A stretch of DNA of 64,000 nucleotides, from the IMG/VR virus record IMGVR_UViG_2541047873_000001, one strand, 5' to 3'. Of this stretch, positions 29,366 to 58,935 are shown one piece after another. Numbering within the stretch: the stretch's first letter is position 1; each line of letters opens with the position of its first letter. The translations under genes and the position numbers were made by a program. The notes below the pieces were generated by a model, which worked only from the letters and a program-made list of their open reading frames with translations, did no database searches and had not been told where the DNA came from. This DNA comes from a virus (taxonomy: Duplodnaviria > Heunggongvirae > Uroviricota > Caudoviricetes).

Positions 29366-29696
29366 TCAACTCAGTAGCTTTGTTAACTCCCTTAATACCA
29401 GGTAGAAGAGTAACAAAAATACTAACGCCAGTATTTGCGTGGTCAACGAGGCGTTCATAAACAGAACAATTAGCTTTAACAATTCGAGAATAACGTCCAT
29501 GTCATTCACACTATTTAATTTTTAATCTACAGCCAGCAAACAATGAAGCTGGCCCCCGCATAAAGATTAATGAAAGTCACTTGTCACCAGTGAGGGGATT
29601 TATGAACCACATCCCCCTGAACTGGTGGACTGTCTATTTCTCGCATTTCACACCCTGCATACAGTTCCCCCCAGGTTATGACTGTGAGGAACTGTT

Positions 29697-34416: not shown

Positions 34417-35397
34417 ATGTCCCAGGAGCTACAGCAATACTTTCTACAGTCCATTACCATCAACGGAAACAAAGTGCCCAGGGAGTGGATATTCACTGCC
34501 GTATATGTGGAAAAGGCAAACCTGCGAGCACCATTGCTGAAACTGGAAATTCACGACATTACCGGCACCATAATTGATGACTGGAAAACAAAATACGGCG
34601 CAGCACTGGTTGCAGAGATGGGAGATCCACAAGGCAATTCAGGCACGTTTAAAACAACTTTTTTCGTAACATCTGCGGTGCTGGCTGGTGATGTCATCAC
34701 GGTCATTGCAGTCAGTGAAGACGTTCGGATATTTAAGATCCCCGCTATACGGGCTAACCTGCATACAAATAAAACGCCTGATACCATTTTCAAGACGTAT
34801 ACCGGTACACTGAAAATCGCCTCCAGCGCATTGAAACGAAGCTGTACGTACCATCTTTCCGCCGGGGAAAAACCCTCCAAAATGCTATCTGAAATGGCCC
34901 GCGATAAAGGCGCTTTATGCTGGGCCTGCCGTGGTCAGTTTAACTTTTATACATTAGCTGACCTTATGAAAGCCAAACCATCATTCACCTATGAAGGGAA
35001 CAACCCCAGGGCGGAATACACGATTTCAAAAATGAGGCTTATACAGCAAGAGTATGCCGTTACGGCAAATACTCAGTATCGATTTACCGGCTATTCAATG
35101 ACTGAAGGCTATGTCGAATATGGCGATAGCTCACTTCCAATACGCTATATATCCGATCCGGATATGGAAACTCTGCGCAATATGCAATTGTCGCTCGTAC
35201 CCAAAATGGATATTGAGGTCGCGGGTAATCCCGACATCACGCCGGGAATGGTTATTGAGATCCTCGTGTATCGTTACGACCAGGAAAATAAGCTGGACGA
35301 ATCGTTGCCTCGTAAGCTGTTGGTGAAAAACGTAGCCCATTTTGAGGACCGGATCGGCTATACAACACGAATGATATTAGGAGTACCCAACCAGTGA
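34417..35397 (+). CDS. baseplate hub-like protein candidate
   Basis: 326 aa directly upstream of the spike gene. Confidence 0.4.
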   Translation: MSQELQQYFLQSITINGNKVPREWIFTAVYVEKANLRAPLLKLEIHDITGTIIDDWKTKYGAALVAEMGDPQGNSGTFKTTFFVTSAVLAGDVITVIAVSEDVRIFKIPAIRANLHTNKTPDTIFKTYTGTLKIASSALKRSCTYHLSAGEKPSKMLSEMARDKGALCWACRGQFNFYTLADLMKAKPSFTYEGNNPRAEYTISKMRLIQQEYAVTANTQYRFTGYSMTEGYVEYGDSSLPIRYISDPDMETLRNMQLSLVPKMDIEVAGNPDITPGMVIEILVYRYDQENKLDESLPRKLLVKNVAHFEDRIGYTTRMILGVPNQ

Positions 35398-36071
35398 AAC
35401 GCAGAGCGCAAATCGTAGGGACCAAACACCCTGCCGGACTTATGCGAGCGCAGGTCCGCATACTGCCTGACTGGAACGGTGTACCGGATGAAGACCTCCC
35501 ATGGGCAGAGTATCAAATGCCTATCGGTAACGCCTTTACACCTACAGTCAGCGGCGATTTAGTCTGGGTCGAATTTCCTTATCTGGATGCTAAAGGCAGG
35601 ATAGACACGCGCCGACCTTTAATCGTTGGTGCGGCGCAGGATGCCCCAGGAGGCGTACCAAATGTGCCTCCGGAAGCCTCCGGACAAGGAAGTGGATGGT
35701 CGCCAGAAGAAGTTGATGGTGCCCCTGCCCGCCCCCAGTTTTCGGCGACTGAAGATTTTGTTATTCACCGAAACAATATCCTTGAGGTCAGAACGGCTGG
35801 CGGTGGCTATGAAATAGCAAACACCGCCGCAGGATCAAGGATAGGGATGAACGAATCCGGCCAGATTTACATAATCGGCCCGGCGAATATAGTGCTTAAT
35901 GCTGGAGGTGAGGTTAACGTCAAATCAAGCAGCAAAACCAATGTATCCTCAGATGGAGACGTTAATGTAAAAGGCAGCAATGTAACCGTCGCAGCTGATG
36001 GTGATATAGCCCTGAAAGCTGGTGGCGCGCTAAAAGCAACAGCGAGCAATTTCTCCTTTGTGAAGGGATAG
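35394..36071 (+). CDS. baseplate central spike (gpV/gp5-like)
   Basis: 225 aa; Gly-rich C-terminal beta-repeat region (NVKSSSKTNVSSDGDVNVKGSNVTVAADGDIALKAGG). Confidence 0.55.
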   Translation: MKRRAQIVGTKHPAGLMRAQVRILPDWNGVPDEDLPWAEYQMPIGNAFTPTVSGDLVWVEFPYLDAKGRIDTRRPLIVGAAQDAPGGVPNVPPEASGQGSGWSPEEVDGAPARPQFSATEDFVIHRNNILEVRTAGGGYEIANTAAGSRIGMNESGQIYIIGPANIVLNAGGEVNVKSSSKTNVSSDGDVNVKGSNVTVAADGDIALKAGGALKATASNFSFVKG

Positions 36072-38744: not shown

Positions 38745-39032
38745 TCATTTTGTATCCTCAGACTCTGCAAGCATGAGGATAGCATGGCGGATCATATTCA
38801 ATTTGCTGCGATTATGCTTTTTGCTTAACGCATCAAGTACCTGGTACTCGTATTCATTGAAGCCAACACGAATGGATTTAAAATCACGTGGGGCGTCCTT
38901 ATCGAGCACTTTGTTGTCTTCTGGTTGCTCACCCGGCACCAAATCAGCTTTGCTGGCAAAAGCCTCAATTCGGCGTTCAAGATCGAGGTCTTTTACTTCG
39001 GGGGCTTTTACCGATTTACGAGGCTTAATCAC
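38745..39032 (-). CDS. ParG-like ribbon-helix-helix centromere-binding protein
   Basis: 95 aa; small protein overlapping the ParA stop; C-terminal SIRVGFNEYEYQVLDALSKKHN resembles RHH partition proteins. Confidence 0.5.
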   Translation of the reverse strand: MIKPRKSVKAPEVKDLDLERRIEAFASKADLVPGEQPEDNKVLDKDAPRDFKSIRVGFNEYEYQVLDALSKKHNRSKLNMIRHAILMLAESEDTK

Positions 39033-39666
39033 TTAATAACTCCTTAACCAACATCTGGATTTCACCTTTAGCTTTCCCGTTGTCCATCTCAACAACGCCC
39101 TTCCCTTCAGCCATACAATCGCGGTAAACCTTGCGATCGCGAATGATGGTTTTCAGCAACTTCAGTTGCGGATATTCAGCAAGGTACTCTTTGGCCTCAT
39201 TGGCTTCATTCACAACCGGATTGGATGGGGCCATTGTTAAGACTGCGCACGCCTTAATGCTAGGATTAGGCATCAGATCCAAAGCCTCTTCAAAGACTTC
39301 AACAAAATGCGCCAGCGTGTCTAAATCTGGCTGAGATGGCCTGAATGGAACAAGCAAAACATCCGCCGCAGTAATACCGGTGCGCATCTCTTTGCTATCA
39401 CGACCAGCGGTATCAACAACCACAAATTCATAACGCTTGTCCAGATCAAGAAGTGTTTCACGAATATTCCCAAACTTCTGGACGCAATGAATTACTGGAG
39501 AAACCTCTGCCGCATTACGGTCCGATGCCCAACGGGCAGATGTTCCTTGCTTATCTGCATCAAGTAGAACTACGTCCTTATTTGCGCGGGCAAGCTCCGC
39601 ACAAATGTTTACGCTGGTGGTTGATTTGCCACAGCCACCTTTTTGGCTGGCTACCAATATAATCAT
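39025..39666 (-). CDS. parA: ParA-family partition ATPase (small ParF type)
   Basis: 213 aa; deviant Walker A KGGCGKST at N-terminus, no N-terminal HTH extension. Confidence 0.85.
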   Translation of the reverse strand: MIILVASQKGGCGKSTTSVNICAELARANKDVVLLDADKQGTSARWASDRNAAEVSPVIHCVQKFGNIRETLLDLDKRYEFVVVDTAGRDSKEMRTGITAADVLLVPFRPSQPDLDTLAHFVEVFEEALDLMPNPSIKACAVLTMAPSNPVVNEANEAKEYLAEYPQLKLLKTIIRDRKVYRDCMAEGKGVVEMDNGKAKGEIQMLVKELLSD

Positions 39667-39951: not shown

Positions 39952-40317
39952 TTAATCAGGGAGTGAGTTTGCCAAATTCTGTGCAGAGCGGCTTTTCGAA
40001 ACGCCAGGTTTTTTAACATCCACTGAGGCAGAGGGGTTTCCTTCAGGGTTTTCCCGAACTTCAGGCGAAATTTCAAGAAATGAAACCAGCATTTTTCTGA
40101 TCACTTCAGGGCTATTATCACCGGATAAAAGCGATGCCAACATGGGAGGTAATCTGCTATCAACCTCGCCAAGAGCGATACCTGCAAGCATCGCTGTGCG
40201 CGCCATATCATTGCGATCTCTTAATGGATGGCCCTCAAGTTTTGCATCAGCATATTGCTCACTGGCGTTAAGACCAGGACGAAGATAAAACAATACTTTT
40301 CGACGTTCCTGAGACAT
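39952..40317 (-). CDS. parR: ParR-like centromere-binding protein
   Basis: 121 aa directly downstream of parM; N-terminal RKVLFYLRPGLN...ARTAMLAGIAL resembles R1 ParR. Confidence 0.55.
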   Translation of the reverse strand: MSQERRKVLFYLRPGLNASEQYADAKLEGHPLRDRNDMARTAMLAGIALGEVDSRLPPMLASLLSGDNSPEVIRKMLVSFLEISPEVRENPEGNPSASVDVKKPGVSKSRSAQNLANSLPD

Positions 40318-40327
40318 GGCAACCTCA

Positions 40328-41287
40328 TCAACCGATAGATTTTAGACCATAGACAAGAGCAAGTTGTGGATCATCAGCAACGAAAAACCTATCGTCACGA
40401 ATGTTTACCTGCTCACGGATAGCATCAGCAACAAGCGGCGCGCCGCCACCAATGACCATAACATGCGTGTATCCTTTGAAATCACTGATCACATCCAGTA
40501 CGCGTGTACGGAGTCGTTCTATGCTTGACGAAATGGCTTTCTTAACATCATCAATAGCTGACGGATCGTTAATATTGTCGGTCAAATAATCCTCATCATC
40601 ACGATTAATGATTAATTGATCGACATTATAATTAGAGGTTTCGGTATTCGCTTTTGCAAGTGCCTGTCTGACCTCTTTAGTTACCAGCGAAACGCCGAGA
40701 TTAGAATCGCCAAATACGCGAGAAACGGCGGTCATTTGCCCGGCGACCATCGACACATCCAGAGTGGTCCCACCAAGATCAACAATAAGCACAGAATGCG
40801 CTGGCACAAGGCTGTCGCACAGACCGATCCCTGCGGGTATTGACTCCGGGCGCACAGTCACTTTTTTGATAGTAAAAACCTGACCTTTGTTAAGGGTGAC
40901 TGGTCGCATCAGGCTGGCCTTTTTCCGCTCAATATTTTTCATGTTGTATTGTGCGTCGTCGTCATAAAACTCTGCCAGTGGCAACGTGACAACTATTTCC
41001 ACTTCTTGAGGCTCAATGCCACTTGTAAGCAGGGCATGATGAACAGCAAGCACATTAAGCGGGCTGTATTGCCATTCAACGTTATTCGTCGGCAGCACAT
41101 CCGGCGAGATCAAGTCATATGAATATTTTTCGTCATCAATGATGTAGTTAAACGGCTTTCCTGCGCCAAATGTGGCGGACCATCCACGTTTAAAACTGTT
41201 CGGACAGATATGGGTTCGAGTTTCCCCGTCTTGTTCCCACAGCATTTTGATATTGGTAGAACCATCGTCGATAAAAATGCGCATCAT
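40328..41287 (-). CDS. parM: ParM actin-like segregation ATPase
   Basis: Internal start MMRIFIDDGSTNIKM matches the ParM/StbA N-terminus; actin-fold phosphate motifs (DLGGTTLD, VIGGGA). Confidence 0.85.
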   Translation of the reverse strand: MMRIFIDDGSTNIKMLWEQDGETRTHICPNSFKRGWSATFGAGKPFNYIIDDEKYSYDLISPDVLPTNNVEWQYSPLNVLAVHHALLTSGIEPQEVEIVVTLPLAEFYDDDAQYNMKNIERKKASLMRPVTLNKGQVFTIKKVTVRPESIPAGIGLCDSLVPAHSVLIVDLGGTTLDVSMVAGQMTAVSRVFGDSNLGVSLVTKEVRQALAKANTETSNYNVDQLIINRDDEDYLTDNINDPSAIDDVKKAISSSIERLRTRVLDVISDFKGYTHVMVIGGGAPLVADAIREQVNIRDDRFFVADDPQLALVYGLKSIG

Positions 41288-41294
41288 ATTGCTC

Positions 41295-41480
41295 CACTTC
41301 TGAGACACATTTGAGAAAGAATTGAATTTTATATGAGAAAACAAAATAAGACCAGAAGTTAGATAGCGTAAAAAGCATCAAACTAGAGATGTAAAAGAGA
41401 CACAAAAGAGACTTATATGACACATGATATACCCACGATACCCATTTGAGACAAATCAGAGACAAATATGAGAAGTAAGA
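41295..41480. repeat. parC-like centromere iterons
   Basis: At least eight copies of (T/A)GAGA(C/A)A at about 10-11 bp spacing upstream of parM. Confidence 0.6.
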
Positions 41481-41536
41481 AATCTGAAGAGTGAAAATCA
41501 CAAAGTGGAGAAGATTTAAGAAAAAGGAGGTGTTAG

Positions 41537-41821
41537 ATGAGTGCAATAGCGACCAGTGACACAGTTTGTTCTGGTCATGGAGGATTCCCTCCGCGACCTG
41601 TAGCAGAAACAGTTTCCTGGTTTACCGTAAATGGAAAGCCAGTGGTTGTAGATGGGGGAGCGTTCCCCAGCCATACTGACGGAAATAGCGCGCACCCCGG
41701 ATCAGCCGTATCGACGCGCTCATGGTTTGCAATAGGCGGGAAAGGAGTTGTTTGTGTGGGAGATCCCCTTTCTTGTGGCTCAGTCATCGCCAATGGTGAG
41801 GCAATTTTTCAGGTGTCATAA
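41537..41821 (+). CDS. PAAR-domain protein
   Basis: 94 aa; Gly/His-rich with repeated (D/S)GG/GHG elements and conserved Cys typical of PAAR spike-tip proteins. Confidence 0.75.
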   Translation: MSAIATSDTVCSGHGGFPPRPVAETVSWFTVNGKPVVVDGGAFPSHTDGNSAHPGSAVSTRSWFAIGGKGVVCVGDPLSCGSVIANGEAIFQVS

Positions 41822-42615
41822 TGCTTGATTCAATCGCTGAAGTTAATGCATTCAAAATTCTAAATGCATCTGGCACAACTACGCCTGCATCTATCACGCT
41901 AAGTAAAACAGCGTCATCCAATGCCAGTTCTCTGGAAGAGAATATCCAGGCTCTTATCCTGAAGGATAAAGCATACCCGGCGTCGGTGGTTTCATGGGTC
42001 AATCAGCTTTCTGTCTTTTCAGAACAACTGAAAACTGTCAGTGCAGAAGCAACCAATTTAGCCGACTCGCTGTCTCCGTATACTTCGCCAACTGAATTAC
42101 TTCAGATGAAAATTGGCTGGGAATGTTACGTCAAAGGTAATGAGTTATCTCCTCCGCCAGAATTTGCTCTCGTAACAGTTATGGGAGATACCCTGCATCC
42201 GCAATCGCTTATTGACGCGTTGGCTGCATTTGAACTGGTGCCAATCACTTCAGCCATGACTGCTATAAATGCAAAAGTTCAGGCGTCAAGCGGGGAGGCT
42301 TCAGGCAACGGAAGTTCCACCGGAACAACACAGCAACCAGCACTAACAGAAGAAGAGATCAAAGCACTAAAAGACGCTGTGGAAGCAGCAACAGAACAAA
42401 TAAATGCAATAAACAACACGAGCAGTAGTCTCTCAACACTTGCACAGCAAGTTAAGGACTCTACAGGAAAAGCCAAACAGGGACTGGAGAATGCTGTAGC
42501 TATTACGTTAACCGGTTCTCTACTGGGCGATGAAGTAATGAGTCCGGCAATCAGTTTGATCATGCCACAAGGTGTAATCGATGCGCTCCAAAGCAACGCT
42601 AAAAAGGAACCATAA
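41821..42615 (+). CDS. hypothetical protein coupled to PAAR
   Basis: 264 aa; ATG overlaps the PAAR stop (TAATG); Ala/Ser/Thr-rich, no recognisable domain. Confidence 0.5.
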   Translation: MLDSIAEVNAFKILNASGTTTPASITLSKTASSNASSLEENIQALILKDKAYPASVVSWVNQLSVFSEQLKTVSAEATNLADSLSPYTSPTELLQMKIGWECYVKGNELSPPPEFALVTVMGDTLHPQSLIDALAAFELVPITSAMTAINAKVQASSGEASGNGSSTGTTQQPALTEEEIKALKDAVEAATEQINAINNTSSSLSTLAQQVKDSTGKAKQGLENAVAITLTGSLLGDEVMSPAISLIMPQGVIDALQSNAKKEP

Positions 42616-42686
42616 CCACACCATTTAAGCCCATAAATGGTTACAAATTGGTACACATATCACACCAACAAAAAAATCTGAAGAGG

Positions 42687-43145
42687 ATGGTTTTGAAAAA
42701 GATAATTTTGATAGTAGTTGCGCTTTTAGCCATTTATGGAATTTACCGTACTACGGCGGCAGTTATCGATCACATCAGGTATATCCGTTCCCTGGAAGAC
42801 TCAAAATCACAACTTGAAAGCGAGAACAACACGCTTTCTACCGCATTGCAGTTAAGTGAAAAGTCGCGATCTGCCATGATGGCTGAAAACGAAAGAATTA
42901 AAACACTGGAGAAGGAGTACCAGCGCAAAACAGCAGAACTGAATACCAGCCTGATCAAACAACGGGAGGAAAGCCAGAATGAAATCAATCGTCTTGAAAC
43001 TGCGTTACGCAATGCCGGGGTTAATGATGTGCGTGTGCCTGATGACGTTATCAGGATGCAGCGGGAACGGGCAAAAGAAATCAATCAGCGTGCCAATGCA
43101 AATTACCGTAGAAGCCACCAGCAAACCGCAGGGAAATCTGATTGA
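42687..43145 (+). CDS. i-spanin (Rz-like)
   Basis: N-terminal transmembrane helix then coiled-coil periplasmic domain; start chosen at MVLKK after RBS. Confidence 0.6.
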   Translation: MVLKKIILIVVALLAIYGIYRTTAAVIDHIRYIRSLEDSKSQLESENNTLSTALQLSEKSRSAMMAENERIKTLEKEYQRKTAELNTSLIKQREESQNEINRLETALRNAGVNDVRVPDDVIRMQRERAKEINQRANANYRRSHQQTAGKSD

Positions 43146-43302
43146 TTATACCCCTTGCATAGTGCCAGAGGACACGCCTGTGCTGTTAAACAAGTATCCG
43201 GCATACACTGAACAGTTATTCAGCACTATCGATGAATGCAACCGACGAAACGCACTGAATAACCAAAGGAATAGGGAGATTTGGGAAGGGAAGGGGGGTT
43301 AA
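42979..43302 (+). CDS. o-spanin (Rz1-like lipoprotein), overlapped architecture
   Basis: Signal peptide with lipobox LSGC; begins in an alternate frame inside the i-spanin gene and extends beyond it. Confidence 0.6.
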   Translation: MKSIVLKLRYAMPGLMMCVCLMTLSGCSGNGQKKSISVPMQITVEATSKPQGNLIDYTPCIVPEDTPVLLNKYPAYTEQLFSTIDECNRRNALNNQRNREIWEGKGG

Positions 43303-43485
43303 GGCTCCTGAAGCCAGATGTCCTGGCTGTCAGCTTCTTCGAAACCGTGACAGACGTTAAAGTCACTCAAGCGATACTGGCGCTGACGGCCTCTATTTCG
43401 CTCATGCCAATGCATATATCCACCAGCAAATTGAACCGCCCCGGGAATCCTGGAGACTAAACTTCCTGAGAAAGAGGTAAACAGG

Positions 43486-43812
43486 ATGACTAAAAATACT
43501 CGTTTTTCCCCCGAAGTCCGTCAACGGGCAGTCCGTATGGTTCTGGAAAGTCAGAGCGAATATGACTCACAATGGGCGACAATTTGTTCCATTGCTCCAA
43601 AGATTGGCTGTACGCCGGAGACTCTGCGTGTCTGGGTTCGCCAGCATGAGCGGGATACCGGGGGCGGTGATGGAGGGCTCACCACCGCTGAACGTCAGCG
43701 TCTGAAAGAGCTGGAACGTGAAAATCGTGAACTGCGCCGCAGTAACGATATCCTTCGCCAGGCTTCCGCTTATTTTGCGAAGGCGGAGTTCGACCGCCTC
43801 TGGAAAAAATGA
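43486..43812 (+). CDS. IS629 transposase OrfA
   Basis: 108 aa HTH/leucine-zipper protein, recognised as IS629 OrfA by eye. Confidence 0.9.
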
Positions 43813-44699
43813 TGCCACTGCTGGATAAGCTGCGTGAGCAGTACGGGGTCGGACCGCTATGCAGCGAACTGCATATTGCCCCGTCAACGTATTACCACTG
43901 TCAGCAACAGCGACATCATCCGGATAAACGCAGTGCCCGTGCGCAGCGCGATGACTGGCTGAAGAAAGAGATACAGCGCGTATACGATGAAAATCACAAG
44001 GTATACGGTGTGCGTAAAGTCTGGCGTCAGTTGTTACGGGAAGGTATCAGAGTGGCCAGATGCACTGTGGCACGTCTCATGGCGGTTATGGGACTTGCCG
44101 GTGTTCTCCGGGGTAAAAAGGTCCGTACGACCATCAGCCGGAAAGCCGTTGCCGCAGGCGACCGCGTAAACCGTCAGTTCGTGGCAGAACGACCTGACCA
44201 GCTGTGGGTGGCTGATTTTACTTACGTCAGCACATGGCGGGGCTTCGTCTATGTGGCGTTCATCATTGATGTGTTTGCCGGATACATCGTGGGGTGGCGG
44301 GTCTCATCGTCCATGGAAACGACATTCGTGCTGGATGCACTGGAGCAGGCGTTATGGGCCCGTCGACCGTCCGGCACGGTCCATCACAGTGATAAAGGTT
44401 CTCAGTATGTATCGCTGGCCTACACACAGCGGCTTAAGGAAGCCGGATTACTGGCATCAACAGGAAGTACAGGCGACTCGTATGACAACGCGATGGCGGA
44501 GAGCATCAATGGTCTTTACAAAGCGGAGGTAATACACCGTAAGAGCTGGAAAAACCGTGCAGAAGTGGAACTGGCCACACTCACGTGGGTGGACTGGTAT
44601 AACAATCGACGATTGCTGGAAAGGCTGGGCCATACTCCTCCGGCAGAAGCAGAAAAAGCTTATTATGCTTCCATCGGAAACGATGATCTGGCAGCCTGA
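43809..44699 (+). CDS. IS629 transposase OrfB (DDE catalytic domain)
   Basis: 296 aa in the -1 frame relative to orfA, overlap at the A-rich aaaaaatg region consistent with programmed frameshifting. Confidence 0.9.
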
Positions 44700-45081
44700 G
44701 TTCACAGATAAAACACTCTCCAGGAAACCCGGGGCGGTTCAAATGCCAGCGGACAATCGCTATAGTCGATGTAGCCAATACCATTACCCAAACGCGCTTC
44801 GCGCGCCCCGGCTTTCCAGGACAGCAGAAAAGAGTCACGATCTGCCAGCATGACTACAAAATCATCTGGATCGCCTATGCAGTGAAGAATGCCTGCCTTG
44901 CATAACTGTTTGAGTGCCTTGGACTGACTCAGGATGTCTTCACCGTAATACTGAAAACAATCATCAACAATAGCGGGATAGCCAGCGGGTGGATTCAGGC
45001 TGGTTGGTATAGCTGACGCGATAGCCAGCATTAAACGATATTGTGTTTTCGATGGGTTCGCGTGACTCATGTTTCCTCTAC

Positions 45082-55071: not shown

Positions 55072-58000
55072 GTGGCGGGCACTCCATATGGAAAAAGCAC
55101 TGGAAGAGAAATACAAAGCCCACGCCAAAAAAACAGGGTGATCACCGCCGATGTAAGTGAGGTTATTTTGAACGATAAAAAAGACCGAATAGCGATAATC
55201 GACGCAATACAAACGGCAAACGCGAAAGAGCTAGCTGCGCTTTCAGAAATAAAAAAAGCACTTGAGTCTTACGGACGCAATCCTGATACCAGCGACGCAC
55301 CACAAGGACGCGTAAGTCGTCGCCTGGCCCGAACAGGGAAAGCAGGGGCGCAACGCAACAGTTTCACACAGGGGCCGTATAAAGACCGGCTCCCTACCAG
55401 GAAACAGAGATTACGTATAAACAACACTAGCGAGATAGATAATCCGCAAAAAGCAGCAGCAGATCACCGCACCGCTCATTCGGAATCAAAAACAGCACCG
55501 CTGGCTGAAGGCAAAGCCACGAAGTCATCACCTGAGCGCATTCAATCGCTCACTCCTGACATTCAGCCTGCAAGGCAAGAACAACCAGTTAGAGAAAACC
55601 AGAGCATCGCTGGTGCACCGTTACGGGATAGCAACGGACGATTTGCCTCTCAGAAAAAAAACGAGGATCTCGCACGCCAGAATGAGCTACGCGCACAGGC
55701 AAAACTACAGGTTGGGTTCCTGCGAAAACTCGGTTCCATTATGGGGGTTGATGGTTCAGGGAAAGCCGACGATGGAGCTGTAACCGATGCTGCCGGGGTA
55801 GGGGCTGGTGGTCCACTATGGATGGCAGCACGGGGCGTATTTGATATCAGCCGCGAGATTACTGGTAAGGCTAAATCATTGAAAGAATGGATAGATAATG
55901 GCAACGACAAGGCGGCTGGCGCACCGGTGGTCGCAAAAGCCCCCGCCATTACTTACCCGGCACCTGACAATGAAAGGAAGACTCCAGATAACGCGCCCGG
56001 TTCAGCAAAGGCATTTACTGAAGCCGTTAAAGAAAAATCTGTGCGTGCGATCGAAGAACAAACGAAAGTTCTTCAACGCAACGACAGCCAGATAATTGAT
56101 GAGCTGGAAACTGTATCCGAAGAGATCCGGAAGCTAAGAAAGTCCCAGGAGAGTGGGCTAAAACTGAGCGACCTCCTCGGCGGTGGCAGATTACGTACCA
56201 AAATATCCCCTACACGCGGTCGTAGCAGTGCACGTGGTGGCAACACGGGCCGCACTGGAGACAGTAAAGAAAACAAGGGCAAGAAGGGAAAAAACACCAG
56301 CAAACCTACTGAGACGGGCAGGAGTCAGGAAGGCAAAGAGGGGAAAAAAAATCAGCCAGGCAAAAACAACAGTGCGGGCGAGGAAAAAAATCGGACAAAA
56401 AATGCTGGTGGGAACGAGGGTAGTACCTCACCAAAATCATCGGGTGATAAATCTTCAGTTAAAACCAGAGCAGGTAAGGTCACTGAAGAAAGTGTAGCCA
56501 AAACGGCGACTGGTGGAGCGGCAGGGAAAGACGCTGGTAAAGCGGCAACTTCCGCTGGGGAAAGCCTTACCAGGAAAGAGGCGGGTAAGGTTGCCGTTGC
56601 CACTGGTGAAAACATCGCGAAAAAAGAAGCTGGAAAAGTGGCTCTCAAAGCTGCCGGAGGTGTTGCCGCAAGGGCCGGATTCAGGGCGATTCCAGTCATC
56701 GGCCAGGTGGCTATGGTTGGTTATGATGCCGTAGACGGCTACAGCGACACAGAAGCGCAGAGGGCGACTTATAACCTGAAGGAAGGGCAGGACGTTACAA
56801 CACAGCAAAAGAGCGCCTACGCCGCTGCTAACGTCCTGGATATGGGCGGTCTGGTGACGGGAGCGGCTAACCTCATTGGCGAGGGGATGTCCGCGCTAGG
56901 CTTTGAAGGTGTCGGACAAAAACTTCAGAGTCTTGATACCAGCAATATCGCTCGCGGCATAAATAGTTCTATCGACGCGTCGAAGAACGCATTCAGCAGC
57001 CTAAAAGAATCGTTCTCATCAAGCAGCGAAGGCACTGCGCAGGTTAAGAAAGCCGTTGAAGATGGCACCAAGCAAACGGTAGCCGCAATTAATGATCTGG
57101 CCCGACAGCTACAGGGCGGGCGCAGAGGTGAGGATGGCGTGGGTGAACACGGCTACAAATCGCCAGACGAATTTAAAGCGCCTGAAAAAAATACAATAAC
57201 GGCTGATCTGAATATAGGCGGAAGCAACGCCAAGAACAGGAATTACCGGAATAACAACCTGGGGAACCTGGTTTTTGCAAATCAGGAGGGGGCGGTACTG
57301 GAAGCGCCGAACGCGAAAGGCGAACAGCGTTTTGCGCGGTTTAATACGCCCGAAGAAGGGATTCGGGCATTGGCAAACCAGGTATCGAGTTATTACAACG
57401 GTACAAGTGCTGCCGCCGGGTATCAGAAGCTGCAAACAGTATCCAGCATCATTTCAAAATGGGCACCACCAACAGAGAACAACACCAATCAGTACATTGA
57501 AAACGTCAGCAAATATCTCGGGGTATCCCCCAACGATAAAATAGACGTTAGCAACCCTGAAGTTATGACGCACCTTGTTCGCGCCATTGCGACGAAGGAG
57601 GGGGGTAACCCGGCGGTTAACAACAATTTCATCAAAACAGCTCTTGGTTCATTCAACGCTAAAACTGGGCGTTGGGAAGGGCAATTCAATGATGAAACGC
57701 TGGAACACATTAATAAAATCCAGAAGGAAAAGGGCGGTCCTCTAATCGCTCGCAACTCCCAATATAGTGTCGGTAGCAAAGTCAAATACGCCAACGGCTC
57801 ATCTTCTGCTATTCCTGCGTCAAGCGTAGCCCAGGCTGTAATGCCTAGCCCTACTGACGTGGTTCAACACGCACAGGCAGCTAAAAAACCGAAGGCAGCT
57901 CAACAGGAAAATGCCCAAGCGATCAGCCACGCGAAAGCTAGTGGCAATTCTTCCGCCGCAGCCGGATTGACGGAGCGGTTAATGAGTGCAGACGGTGTTG

Positions 58001-58935
58001 GGGGCGTCATCGCCGGGATAGTTGGGGGAGATCCCAATATGGGGCTAAATCTCGGCCCCGTCAGTTCTCCGGAAGAGATGTCCTCGTTAGCAGCAAAAGC
58101 CAAGCAATTGGATAAGTTTCTTGTTGAAAAAATATCCAGAGCAACGGGCAAAAACTTTAGTTTCCAGAAGGCGGAACAGATCGCCGATATCACTACGGCT
58201 ATACAGCAAAAGCGCAACGTTAACCGCGATACAGAAACCATTGGCCTGCTTCCGGAGAGTCCGGCAACCATCAGCGAGAAGCGTGCCACATCGACACCGG
58301 CGGGTGTGCAGATGTACGACAACGGCTACAAGGTGGTTGAAGGTGAGGACAGGGGCTTCTTTGGCTCGCTATTTGATTCAACTGTGTCAGGGCTTAACCA
58401 GGTAGGCTCCGCCGTCCTCCCCGCCGTTGGAGATAACCTCTCGCGACTTGTGGGCGGTATTGATAGCACCGGAATGTTAAATGACTTTGTATTGCAGTCC
58501 TCTGGACAGAATACCGATGTTGCTCGCGCTATTAGTCCGTTAACAAGGAGTGTTGGCGGTTGGCTGAATGGTGGCATACAGAAAACGGCGGATACGATCA
58601 GGGACACAACTGGCGCAATCAATCAAAGCCTGTTTGCTTCGGGCGTGGCTGCTAAAGAACCGTTCCTTGCAATGCCTCCGCAGCTACCAATCGTCACGGA
58701 CCTCGCACGAAGCGGAATAAGGCAGATGCTAACAACAGATACCGCAAATAACGATCCGGCTATGTTGAAAGCACTGGAGAACGTTTATTCCGTTCTTAAA
58801 GAGATTCTTGGCGTAAGCAAAGACAACCGCAAAGGCGATCAGGACAAAGTTGTGAACACATCACAACCACAACCTCGTCAGCGTGCCAGCACGACTATCA
58901 ATGACCCATCTCTTGACAAATTACTGGAGGATTAA
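55072..58935 (+). CDS. tape measure / injection protein with putative peptidoglycan hydrolase domain (start uncertain)
   Basis: About 1287 aa; Lys/Gly-rich region with repeated KEAGKVA units; conserved-looking block (NNLGNLVFANQ...FARFNTPEEGIRALANQV...ISKWAP...LVRAIATKEGG) suggests a cell-wall hydrolase domain; P1 Sit is an analogous protein. Confidence 0.55.
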   Translation: MAGTPYGKSTGREIQSPRQKNRVITADVSEVILNDKKDRIAIIDAIQTANAKELAALSEIKKALESYGRNPDTSDAPQGRVSRRLARTGKAGAQRNSFTQGPYKDRLPTRKQRLRINNTSEIDNPQKAAADHRTAHSESKTAPLAEGKATKSSPERIQSLTPDIQPARQEQPVRENQSIAGAPLRDSNGRFASQKKNEDLARQNELRAQAKLQVGFLRKLGSIMGVDGSGKADDGAVTDAAGVGAGGPLWMAARGVFDISREITGKAKSLKEWIDNGNDKAAGAPVVAKAPAITYPAPDNERKTPDNAPGSAKAFTEAVKEKSVRAIEEQTKVLQRNDSQIIDELETVSEEIRKLRKSQESGLKLSDLLGGGRLRTKISPTRGRSSARGGNTGRTGDSKENKGKKGKNTSKPTETGRSQEGKEGKKNQPGKNNSAGEEKNRTKNAGGNEGSTSPKSSGDKSSVKTRAGKVTEESVAKTATGGAAGKDAGKAATSAGESLTRKEAGKVAVATGENIAKKEAGKVALKAAGGVAARAGFRAIPVIGQVAMVGYDAVDGYSDTEAQRATYNLKEGQDVTTQQKSAYAAANVLDMGGLVTGAANLIGEGMSALGFEGVGQKLQSLDTSNIARGINSSIDASKNAFSSLKESFSSSSEGTAQVKKAVEDGTKQTVAAINDLARQLQGGRRGEDGVGEHGYKSPDEFKAPEKNTITADLNIGGSNAKNRNYRNNNLGNLVFANQEGAVLEAPNAKGEQRFARFNTPEEGIRALANQVSSYYNGTSAAAGYQKLQTVSSIISKWAPPTENNTNQYIENVSKYLGVSPNDKIDVSNPEVMTHLVRAIATKEGGNPAVNNNFIKTALGSFNAKTGRWEGQFNDETLEHINKIQKEKGGPLIARNSQYSVGSKVKYANGSSSAIPASSVAQAVMPSPTDVVQHAQAAKKPKAAQQENAQAISHAKASGNSSAAAGLTERLMSADGVGGVIAGIVGGDPNMGLNLGPVSSPEEMSSLAAKAKQLDKFLVEKISRATGKNFSFQKAEQIADITTAIQQKRNVNRDTETIGLLPESPATISEKRATSTPAGVQMYDNGYKVVEGEDRGFFGSLFDSTVSGLNQVGSAVLPAVGDNLSRLVGGIDSTGMLNDFVLQSSGQNTDVARAISPLTRSVGGWLNGGIQKTADTIRDTTGAINQSLFASGVAAKEPFLAMPPQLPIVTDLARSGIRQMLTTDTANNDPAMLKALENVYSVLKEILGVSKDNRKGDQDKVVNTSQPQPRQRASTTINDPSLDKLLED

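Follow-up and report, generated by a model that had tools for sequence, protein, structure and literature searches.

The window analysed here, a 64,000-nucleotide stretch of a tailed phage genome (Caudoviricetes; IMG/VR record IMGVR_UViG_2541047873_000001), encodes baseplate, spike, capsid, sheath and tape-measure proteins. The region was 96.6–99.2% identical to seven circular, non-mobilizable plasmids of ~90–94 kb from E. coli and E. marmotae (e.g. NZ_LR890273.1), and many D6-like plasmids matched it at about 88% with gaps; the nearest named phage was D6. By its D6-like plasmid relatives and its virion genes, the genome is classed as a D6/P1-like myovirus maintained as a plasmid. Within it, a gene for a PAAR-type protein is followed on the same strand by a gene for a 264 aa protein and by two spanin genes (Table 1). 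Both open reading frames of the pair are present as an earlier note on this DNA had described them (41537–41821 and 41821–42615), and the overlap it reported between the PAAR stop and the start of the partner amounts to a single shared base, the stop TAA occupying 41819–41821 and the ATG 41821–41823.

Table 1 Features of the PAAR–UpfB locus and the associated spike gene, by position in the window.
Feature	Position	Strand	Basis and remarks
gp5-type central spike gene, without lysozyme domain	35394..36071	+	phrog_430, E = 8e−43; P1 Gp5; expected to be capped by the PAAR protein
Shine-Dalgarno sequence AAGGAGGTG, strong	41524..41532	+	4 nt 5' of the PAAR ATG; read from sequence
PAAR-type gene for a predicted spike-tip protein	41537..41821	+	94 aa, ATG start; homolog of P1 upfC, D6 orf57 and T4 5.4
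Shine-Dalgarno-like AGGTG, within the PAAR gene	41811..41815	+	5 nt 5' of the UpfB ATG; read from sequence
TAATG junction	41819..41823	+	One base common to the PAAR stop and the UpfB start; read from sequence
UpfB-family gene, proposed spike-tip 'tripod'	41821..42615	+	264 aa, ATG start; all-helical, acidic
i-spanin gene, Rz-like	42648..43145	+	phrog_214 'Rz-like spanin', E = 1e−14; N-terminal hydrophobic helix in translation
o-spanin gene, lipoprotein	42979..43302	+	Lipobox LSGC; phrog_456, E = 2e−5; weak Pfam O_Spanin_T7; P1 mlp homolog

Each gene of the pair has its own Shine-Dalgarno sequence. We regard both as real genes rather than chance open reading frames because the pair is kept in 44 phage-plasmid loci, among which UpfB identity falls to 22%. 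No sigma-70-like promoter and no convincing terminator was found between the PAAR gene and the spanin genes, and a sigma-70 scan of 41250–43500 returned no promoter match. Only one site in the window (29564–29582, minus strand) matched exactly the late-promoter motif of P1 (AAGTGACTT-N4-TANNNT, taken from P1 LP23); no match fell near PAAR, and the motif was not enriched relative to shuffled sequence; the late promoters of D6-like phages may therefore differ from those of P1.

Downstream of the pair, the o-spanin gene begins inside the i-spanin gene and ends past it, an overlapped architecture. The true start of the i-spanin is likely the ATG at 42687 (MVLKKIILIVVALLAIYGIY...) and not the listed TTG at 42648. 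The i-spanin gene is kept downstream of UpfB in the D6-like loci L002–L032; in P1 (L001), where ppfA corresponds to it, a tblastn search with the i-spanin gave no match. Just after the spanins, an IS3-family insertion (43432–44739; orfA 43486–43812, orfB 43809–44699) splits the homolog of a 152 aa minus-strand gene that follows the spanins in NZ_LR890273.1. This insertion is absent from the 98–99% identical relatives L004–L006, in which a 5-bp overlap is seen at the junction.

Upstream of the PAAR gene, the minus strand carries genes for ParM, a Plasmid_stab_B (ParR-like) protein and a small ATPase of ParA type. The stretch that separates PAAR from the parM start contains GAGAC/GAGAA iterons (41302–41474), several of them spaced 11 bp apart, which form a parC-like site. 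With these iterons on one side and the Rz-like and lipoprotein spanins on the other, the PAAR gene sits where the earlier note had placed it, between a parC-like centromere and the spanin genes. The parC-like site and the ParR-like gene (39952–40317) shared only 41–65% nucleotide identity with D6, and parM and the ParA-like gene 75–98%, a pattern that resembles a change in the specificity of partition or incompatibility. The ParM/ParR-like pair is adjoined by a further small pair of partition type (38745–39666), comprising a 213 aa ParA/MipZ-type ATPase and a 95 aa upstream-overlapping open reading frame; the window, like D6, seems to hold two partition cassettes side by side.

A PAAR protein and a member of the UpfB family

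The 94 aa protein scored 30 bits (E = 6e−7) with the Pfam PAAR_motif family (PF05488), above the gathering score of 27, and matched phrog_281 (E = 2e−28). It aligned with P1 UpfC (PDB 9vyi_A) from end to end, residues 1–94 against 1–94 (E = 6e−36), with no extension domain, and also with T4 gp5.4 (PDB 5iv5, E = 7e−7; 5iv5 and 4ku0, E of about 1e−6). The product of 41537–41821 was the only PAAR-like sequence in the window. Four of its residues (H14, H46, H53 and C80) were invariant in the PAAR proteins of 19 lineages; from published PAAR structures, we take this His3Cys set to be the expected Zn ligands at the vertex of the cone. The protein is almost certainly a homolog of P1 UpfC and T4 gp5.4 and, as such, the predicted tip of the spike.

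A suitable spike is encoded in the same window, as the product of 35394–36071 matched P1 'Gp5' (PDB 9vzk chain q, E = 1.5e−53). In P1 cryo-EM, UpfC was built as a monomeric tip atop the gp5 trimer (PMC12810830). Capping of the spike in the virion by the PAAR protein is established for the P1 homolog only (PMC12810830; bioRxiv 10.1101/2025.07.21.665459), and deletion of upfC in P1 left plaques without defect (Gonzales et al. 2022, PMC9024508).

The partner had been described as an Ala/Ser/Thr-rich protein of no recognisable family. Its composition was as stated (Ala+Ser+Thr 34%; pI 4.5, 27.5 kDa). Its family can be named: residues 1–261 matched positions 1–263 of phrog_1559 (E = 5e−101), and tblastn recovered D6 orf56 at 58% identity and P1 UpfB, P7 Upf63.6 and related proteins at about 31% over 99% of the length. 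These matches place the protein, over its full length, in PHROG 1559, the P1 UpfB family; Pfam has no family for it. The similarity is already recorded in the D6 entry. The family is small, with 70 representatives at 50% identity in an exhaustive profile search of 1.84 billion representative proteins. Complete members are all about 240–265 aa long and consist of this one domain alone, and the 21 phage records that carry UpfB are all P1-, P7-, D6- or JK004-like. A Pfam search with the 264 aa protein and 46 relatives (47 members, E ≤ 1) returned nothing beyond low-complexity and coiled-coil noise.

The sequence carries no transmembrane segment (maximum 19-residue Kyte-Doolittle hydropathy 1.48), and the translation has no signal peptide and no lipobox. 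No PHROG match to a lysis family and no Pfam or PHROG match to a chaperone family was obtained. An AlphaFold2 model (pLDDT 80, pTM 0.70) comprised 10 helices in an all-alpha fold with a disordered Gly/Ser linker, in agreement with the published alpha-helical description of UpfB (PMC13611949). A Foldseek search of this model against the PDB found nothing significant (best E = 0.15). The N-terminal 14 residues (MLDxxxQxxAFxxL) were the best-conserved block of UpfB family-wide, at 43% compared with about 20–29% elsewhere, and were modelled with low confidence in the AlphaFold2 monomer. An N-terminus that is conserved yet low in confidence when modelled alone is what would be expected if the segment took up its fold against a partner. 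We infer that these 14 residues may be the element that docks on the PAAR cone, which is itself conserved, and that the variable helical body would be exposed and face the host envelope.

Linkage of the two genes across related phage-plasmids

We collected 44 loci with a UpfB homolog and mapped PAAR and the spanins within them. All sampled loci belonged to phage-plasmids that encode capsid, sheath, baseplate and tape-measure proteins. A PAAR gene lay no more than 5.5 kb upstream of the UpfB gene, on the same strand, in every locus (44/44). PAAR was directly upstream of UpfB in 39 of the 44, and 35 of those 39 (35/44 overall) had the 1-nt stop/start overlap seen in the window, including lineages whose UpfB is only 23–30% identical to that of the window. 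A gap of 8 nt separates the two genes in P1 (with the start as re-read here), and one of 15 nt in L037 and L038. In L042 and L043 a holin-like gene (phrog_3427) stands between PAAR and UpfB, its stop overlapping the UpfB start. UpfB is coupled to whatever gene precedes it, and the overlap therefore reflects a compact operon and is weaker evidence for a specific partnership with PAAR.

As annotated, P1 upfB (L001 4944–5789) begins with a 49-nt overlap with upfC. UpfB homologs all begin with MLD, MLE or MLN, which corresponds to an ATG at L001 5001, 8 nt past the upfC stop and with GGAG upstream. The match suggests that the annotated P1 upfB is probably too long.

In the most distant clade (L033, L039 and L040), UpfB identity was about 22%, still with a match to phrog_1559 at E = 7.5e−24. 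There the spike and PAAR genes came first, then two to four small genes, one of them holin-like, and after these UpfB, major capsid and sheath; in L040 the PAAR gene starts 8 nt after the spike gene. The ancestral order was probably spike–PAAR–(lysis genes)–UpfB–capsid, and the window is collinear with this layout bar insertions. It departs from it by rdgC-like, dam-like and minus-strand partition genes between spike and PAAR, and by the IS after the spanins. The earlier note was right that the PAAR gene is apart from the spike gene (35394–36071), the two being separated by 5.4 kb with rdgC/hrdC-like, dam-like and partition genes between them. Its view of this location away from the baseplate as special did not hold, as the location is common to P1 and D6 and is explained by insertions, and in L040 PAAR adjoins the spike. 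Judged from gene order, the apparent displacement of the PAAR gene is best explained by the insertion of accessory and plasmid genes (rdgC, dam and partition) behind the spike gene of an ancestral late operon.

Lysis and spike-tip genes were interleaved throughout the phage group. Small genes occupy the interval between PAAR and UpfB in several distant relatives (L042 5633–6001; L040 6963–7919; L033 1047–1900; L039 4543–5043): the holin-like phrog_3427 gene and, in L033, L039 and L040, also a conserved gene of ~167 aa (phrog_3108, motif ETCAAETLLG). In the metagenomic relative L041 (54–3500), the DNA methyltransferase gene located upstream of PAAR encodes Hint and LAGLIDADG domains, a sign of an intein.

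Divergence of UpfB among D6-like elements

PAAR was always much better conserved than UpfB. Relative to the window, identities were 88% versus 59% in D6, 78% versus 41% in L028 and 59% versus 32% in P1. Among 21 E. coli D6-like elements, UpfB had the lowest mean pairwise identity of five neighbouring genes (80%), the PAAR, both spanin and capsid proteins averaging 92–95% in the same elements. Similarly, between the window and D6, UpfB was 59% identical and the neighbouring genes 84–88%.

This divergence was concentrated in particular stretches of the gene. Nucleotide identity between the window and D6 was 44–61% across 41825–42487 and 76–93% on the flanks. At the protein level, UpfB residues 1–14, 80–110 and 223–264 were 86–90% identical, whereas residues 15–79 and 111–222, which are helical stretches, were only 26–53% identical. 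From these comparisons, the helical body of UpfB in the window is judged to be a different allele on an otherwise similar D6 backbone. The helical body is swapped between near-identical phage-plasmids.

Proposed role of the pair at the spike tip

In a cryo-EM study of P1 from January 2026, UpfB was held to form a helical 'tripod', described there as novel, that has its anchor point on the tip made by UpfC; the assignment combined medium-resolution density with the fit of an AlphaFold3 trimer, and no atomic model was built (PMC12810830). A helical-tripod role for the UpfB family was thus first proposed in 2026, and UpfB has no entry in the PDB. A later paper presented an independent AlphaFold3 model with three helical UpfB copies on UpfC (PMC13611949), and a second cryo-EM study of the P1 baseplate made no mention of UpfB. 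The tripod assignment in P1 is plausible and not yet firmly established. Gonzales et al. (2022) also made a upfB deletion in P1 (PMC9024508), and a CRISPRi screen of P1 scored both upfB and upfC as non-essential. Both genes are dispensable for plaque formation in P1 (PMC9024508; CRISPRi screen), and therefore no phenotype links them to entry.

We propose that the two genes of the window form the spike-tip module of a D6/P1-like myovirus, with UpfB as a tripod on PAAR, and put the probability of this reading at roughly 0.7, our confidence being lower for the UpfB part than for the PAAR part. The homology, the conserved linkage, the helical fold and the lack of enzyme or membrane domains form its basis here. 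Virion location and stoichiometry are taken by analogy from the P1 homologs. The gp5-like spike (35394–36071), a beta-helical trimer, would have its blunt end capped and sharpened by a single PAAR copy. Three UpfB copies, or three trimers, would be fixed to the faces of the PAAR cone and project past the tip as a flexible tripod. When the sheath contracts, this PAAR/UpfB assembly would be the first part of the virion to enter the host envelope, and it is presumably shed together with the spike. The genes for PAAR and UpfB would be co-transcribed with the spanin genes and translationally coupled.

The pair is a divergent copy of the known UpfC–UpfB module of P1-like phages and not a new system. 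It shares with P1 both protein families (PAAR about 57–59% and UpfB about 31–32% identical over the full length), the order upfC–upfB–i-spanin–o-spanin beside plasmid maintenance genes, and a gp5-type spike without lysozyme (PDB 9vyi, 9vzk; PMC12810830). The two differ in the junction (a 1-nt overlap in the window versus 8 nt apart in P1, by the re-read start), in the neighbouring plasmid module (ParM/StbB and a small ParA versus RepA/ParAB) and in the highly diverged UpfB sequence. The orf57–orf56 pair of D6, a D6-like phage-plasmid of ~92 kb, is closer still, with the same positions, the same 1-nt overlap, and PAAR and spanins that are 88% and 84–86% identical, respectively; it differs in its UpfB, only 58–59% identical, and the window additionally has the IS3-family insertion after the spanins.

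The spike tip of phage T4, gp5.4 (PDB 4ku0, 5iv5), likewise consists of a single PAAR domain (~95 aa); it caps the gp5 beta-helix, and plaques form without it. T4 has no UpfB homolog, all 21 phage records with UpfB falling in the groups named above, and its gp5 carries a lysozyme domain, which the spike of the window does not. Gene 5.4 lies near gene 5 on the T4 map.

In type VI secretion (T6SS), too, a PAAR cone on a trimeric spike holds an adjacently encoded protein (cargo, or one bound through Eag or DUF4123 adaptors) that is carried into the target envelope. The window has no T6SS genes and no adaptor or toxin domain, and the partner is non-covalent, helical and of a phage-specific family; the resemblance is one of principle only. 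As a claim of family, the analogy of the earlier note with T6SS effectors and adaptors was not upheld, there being no T6SS context and neither a toxin nor an adaptor domain. Its suggestion that the partner is a virion protein linked to PAAR agrees with the P1 work of 2026, in which the UpfB tripod is modelled on UpfC (PMC12810830), and the genes are neighbours in every sampled lineage.

Three other roles for UpfB were weighed against the tripod. It is unlikely that UpfB is a non-virion assembly factor or chaperone that keeps PAAR soluble or loads it, as the Eag and DUF4123 adaptors of T6SS do. Such a protein could well be encoded directly downstream of PAAR and in translational coupling with it, as UpfB is in most lineages, and be non-essential, as both UpfB and the PAAR protein are. 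It would also agree with the P1 virion LC-MS/MS paper, which does not name UpfB in its main text or main-text tables; the same proteomics, however, missed UpfC, gp5 and gp26, and the omission of UpfB is weak evidence for that reason (PMC9024508). Against a chaperone, the extra tip density in the P1 cryo-EM fits the UpfB model (PMC12810830), and UpfB matched no adaptor or chaperone family.

Somewhat more doubtful is a role as delivered cargo that acts in the recipient, for example by perturbing the membrane for DNA passage or countering exclusion or defence, analogous to a PAAR-borne T6SS effector. A protein at the extreme tip would enter first (PMC12810830), and the helical body of UpfB is the least conserved of the five neighbouring genes, as described above (mean 80% versus 92–95%; 59% versus 84–88% between the window and D6). 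At long range, however, the spanins diverge as fast as UpfB, so fast divergence is not unique to it. UpfB also contains no catalytic or toxin domain, its model resembled nothing in the PDB at a significant level (best Foldseek E = 0.15), and its loss in P1 gave no plaque phenotype.

A third role, which we consider very improbable, is that of a lysis or envelope accessory working late with the holin and spanins, its proximity to PAAR being mere operon layout. UpfB does always adjoin lysis genes: the spanins lie downstream in the window, D6 and P1, a holin-like gene is directly upstream in L042 and L040, and in L042 its stop overlaps the UpfB start. Yet UpfB has none of the transmembrane segment (maximum hydropathy 1.48), signal peptide or lipobox that would accompany such a role, and the holin, antiholin and endolysin functions of P1 belong to other genes (lydA, lydB and lyz). 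The PAAR gene shares this lysis neighbourhood and is nevertheless certainly structural, and the cryo-EM assignment puts UpfB on the spike tip (PMC12810830).

Further identities were rejected. The window and the sampled loci are phage-plasmids and not T6SS or VgrG loci, and no DUF4123, DUF1795/Eag, DUF2169 or toxin domain was found, which dismisses a T6SS effector or adaptor. A holin, antiholin or spanin was dismissed in the absence of a transmembrane segment, signal anchor, lipobox or lysis PHROG. Genes for tail assembly chaperones occupy the interval from the tube gene to the tape-measure gene and in most cases have a programmed frameshift; the UpfB gene lies elsewhere, 12 kb from the tape-measure gene (55072–58935), and its product had no chaperone family match. 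On these results the partner is neither of the things that the earlier note had set against its own proposal, a tail assembly chaperone or a holin-family protein unlinked to PAAR.

With regard to the proposed tripod, the allele of the window enlarges a small, phage-specific family by a divergent member, and the 'hypothetical protein' label that RefSeq gives on such plasmids can be replaced by 'UpfB-like spike-tip protein'. The linkage of PAAR and UpfB persists across lineages with UpfB identity down to 22%. This linkage, together with the gene order, the N-terminal block and the swapped body, points to the likely positions of the docking element and of the surface turned towards the host. It is possible, if rather doubtful, that UpfB is a fast-evolving, exchangeable attachment of the tip whose helical body sets how the host envelope is engaged or evades exclusion by resident prophages. 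If this were true, the allele of the window, 59% identical to that of D6 on a backbone that is 84–91% identical, would give a different entry specificity.
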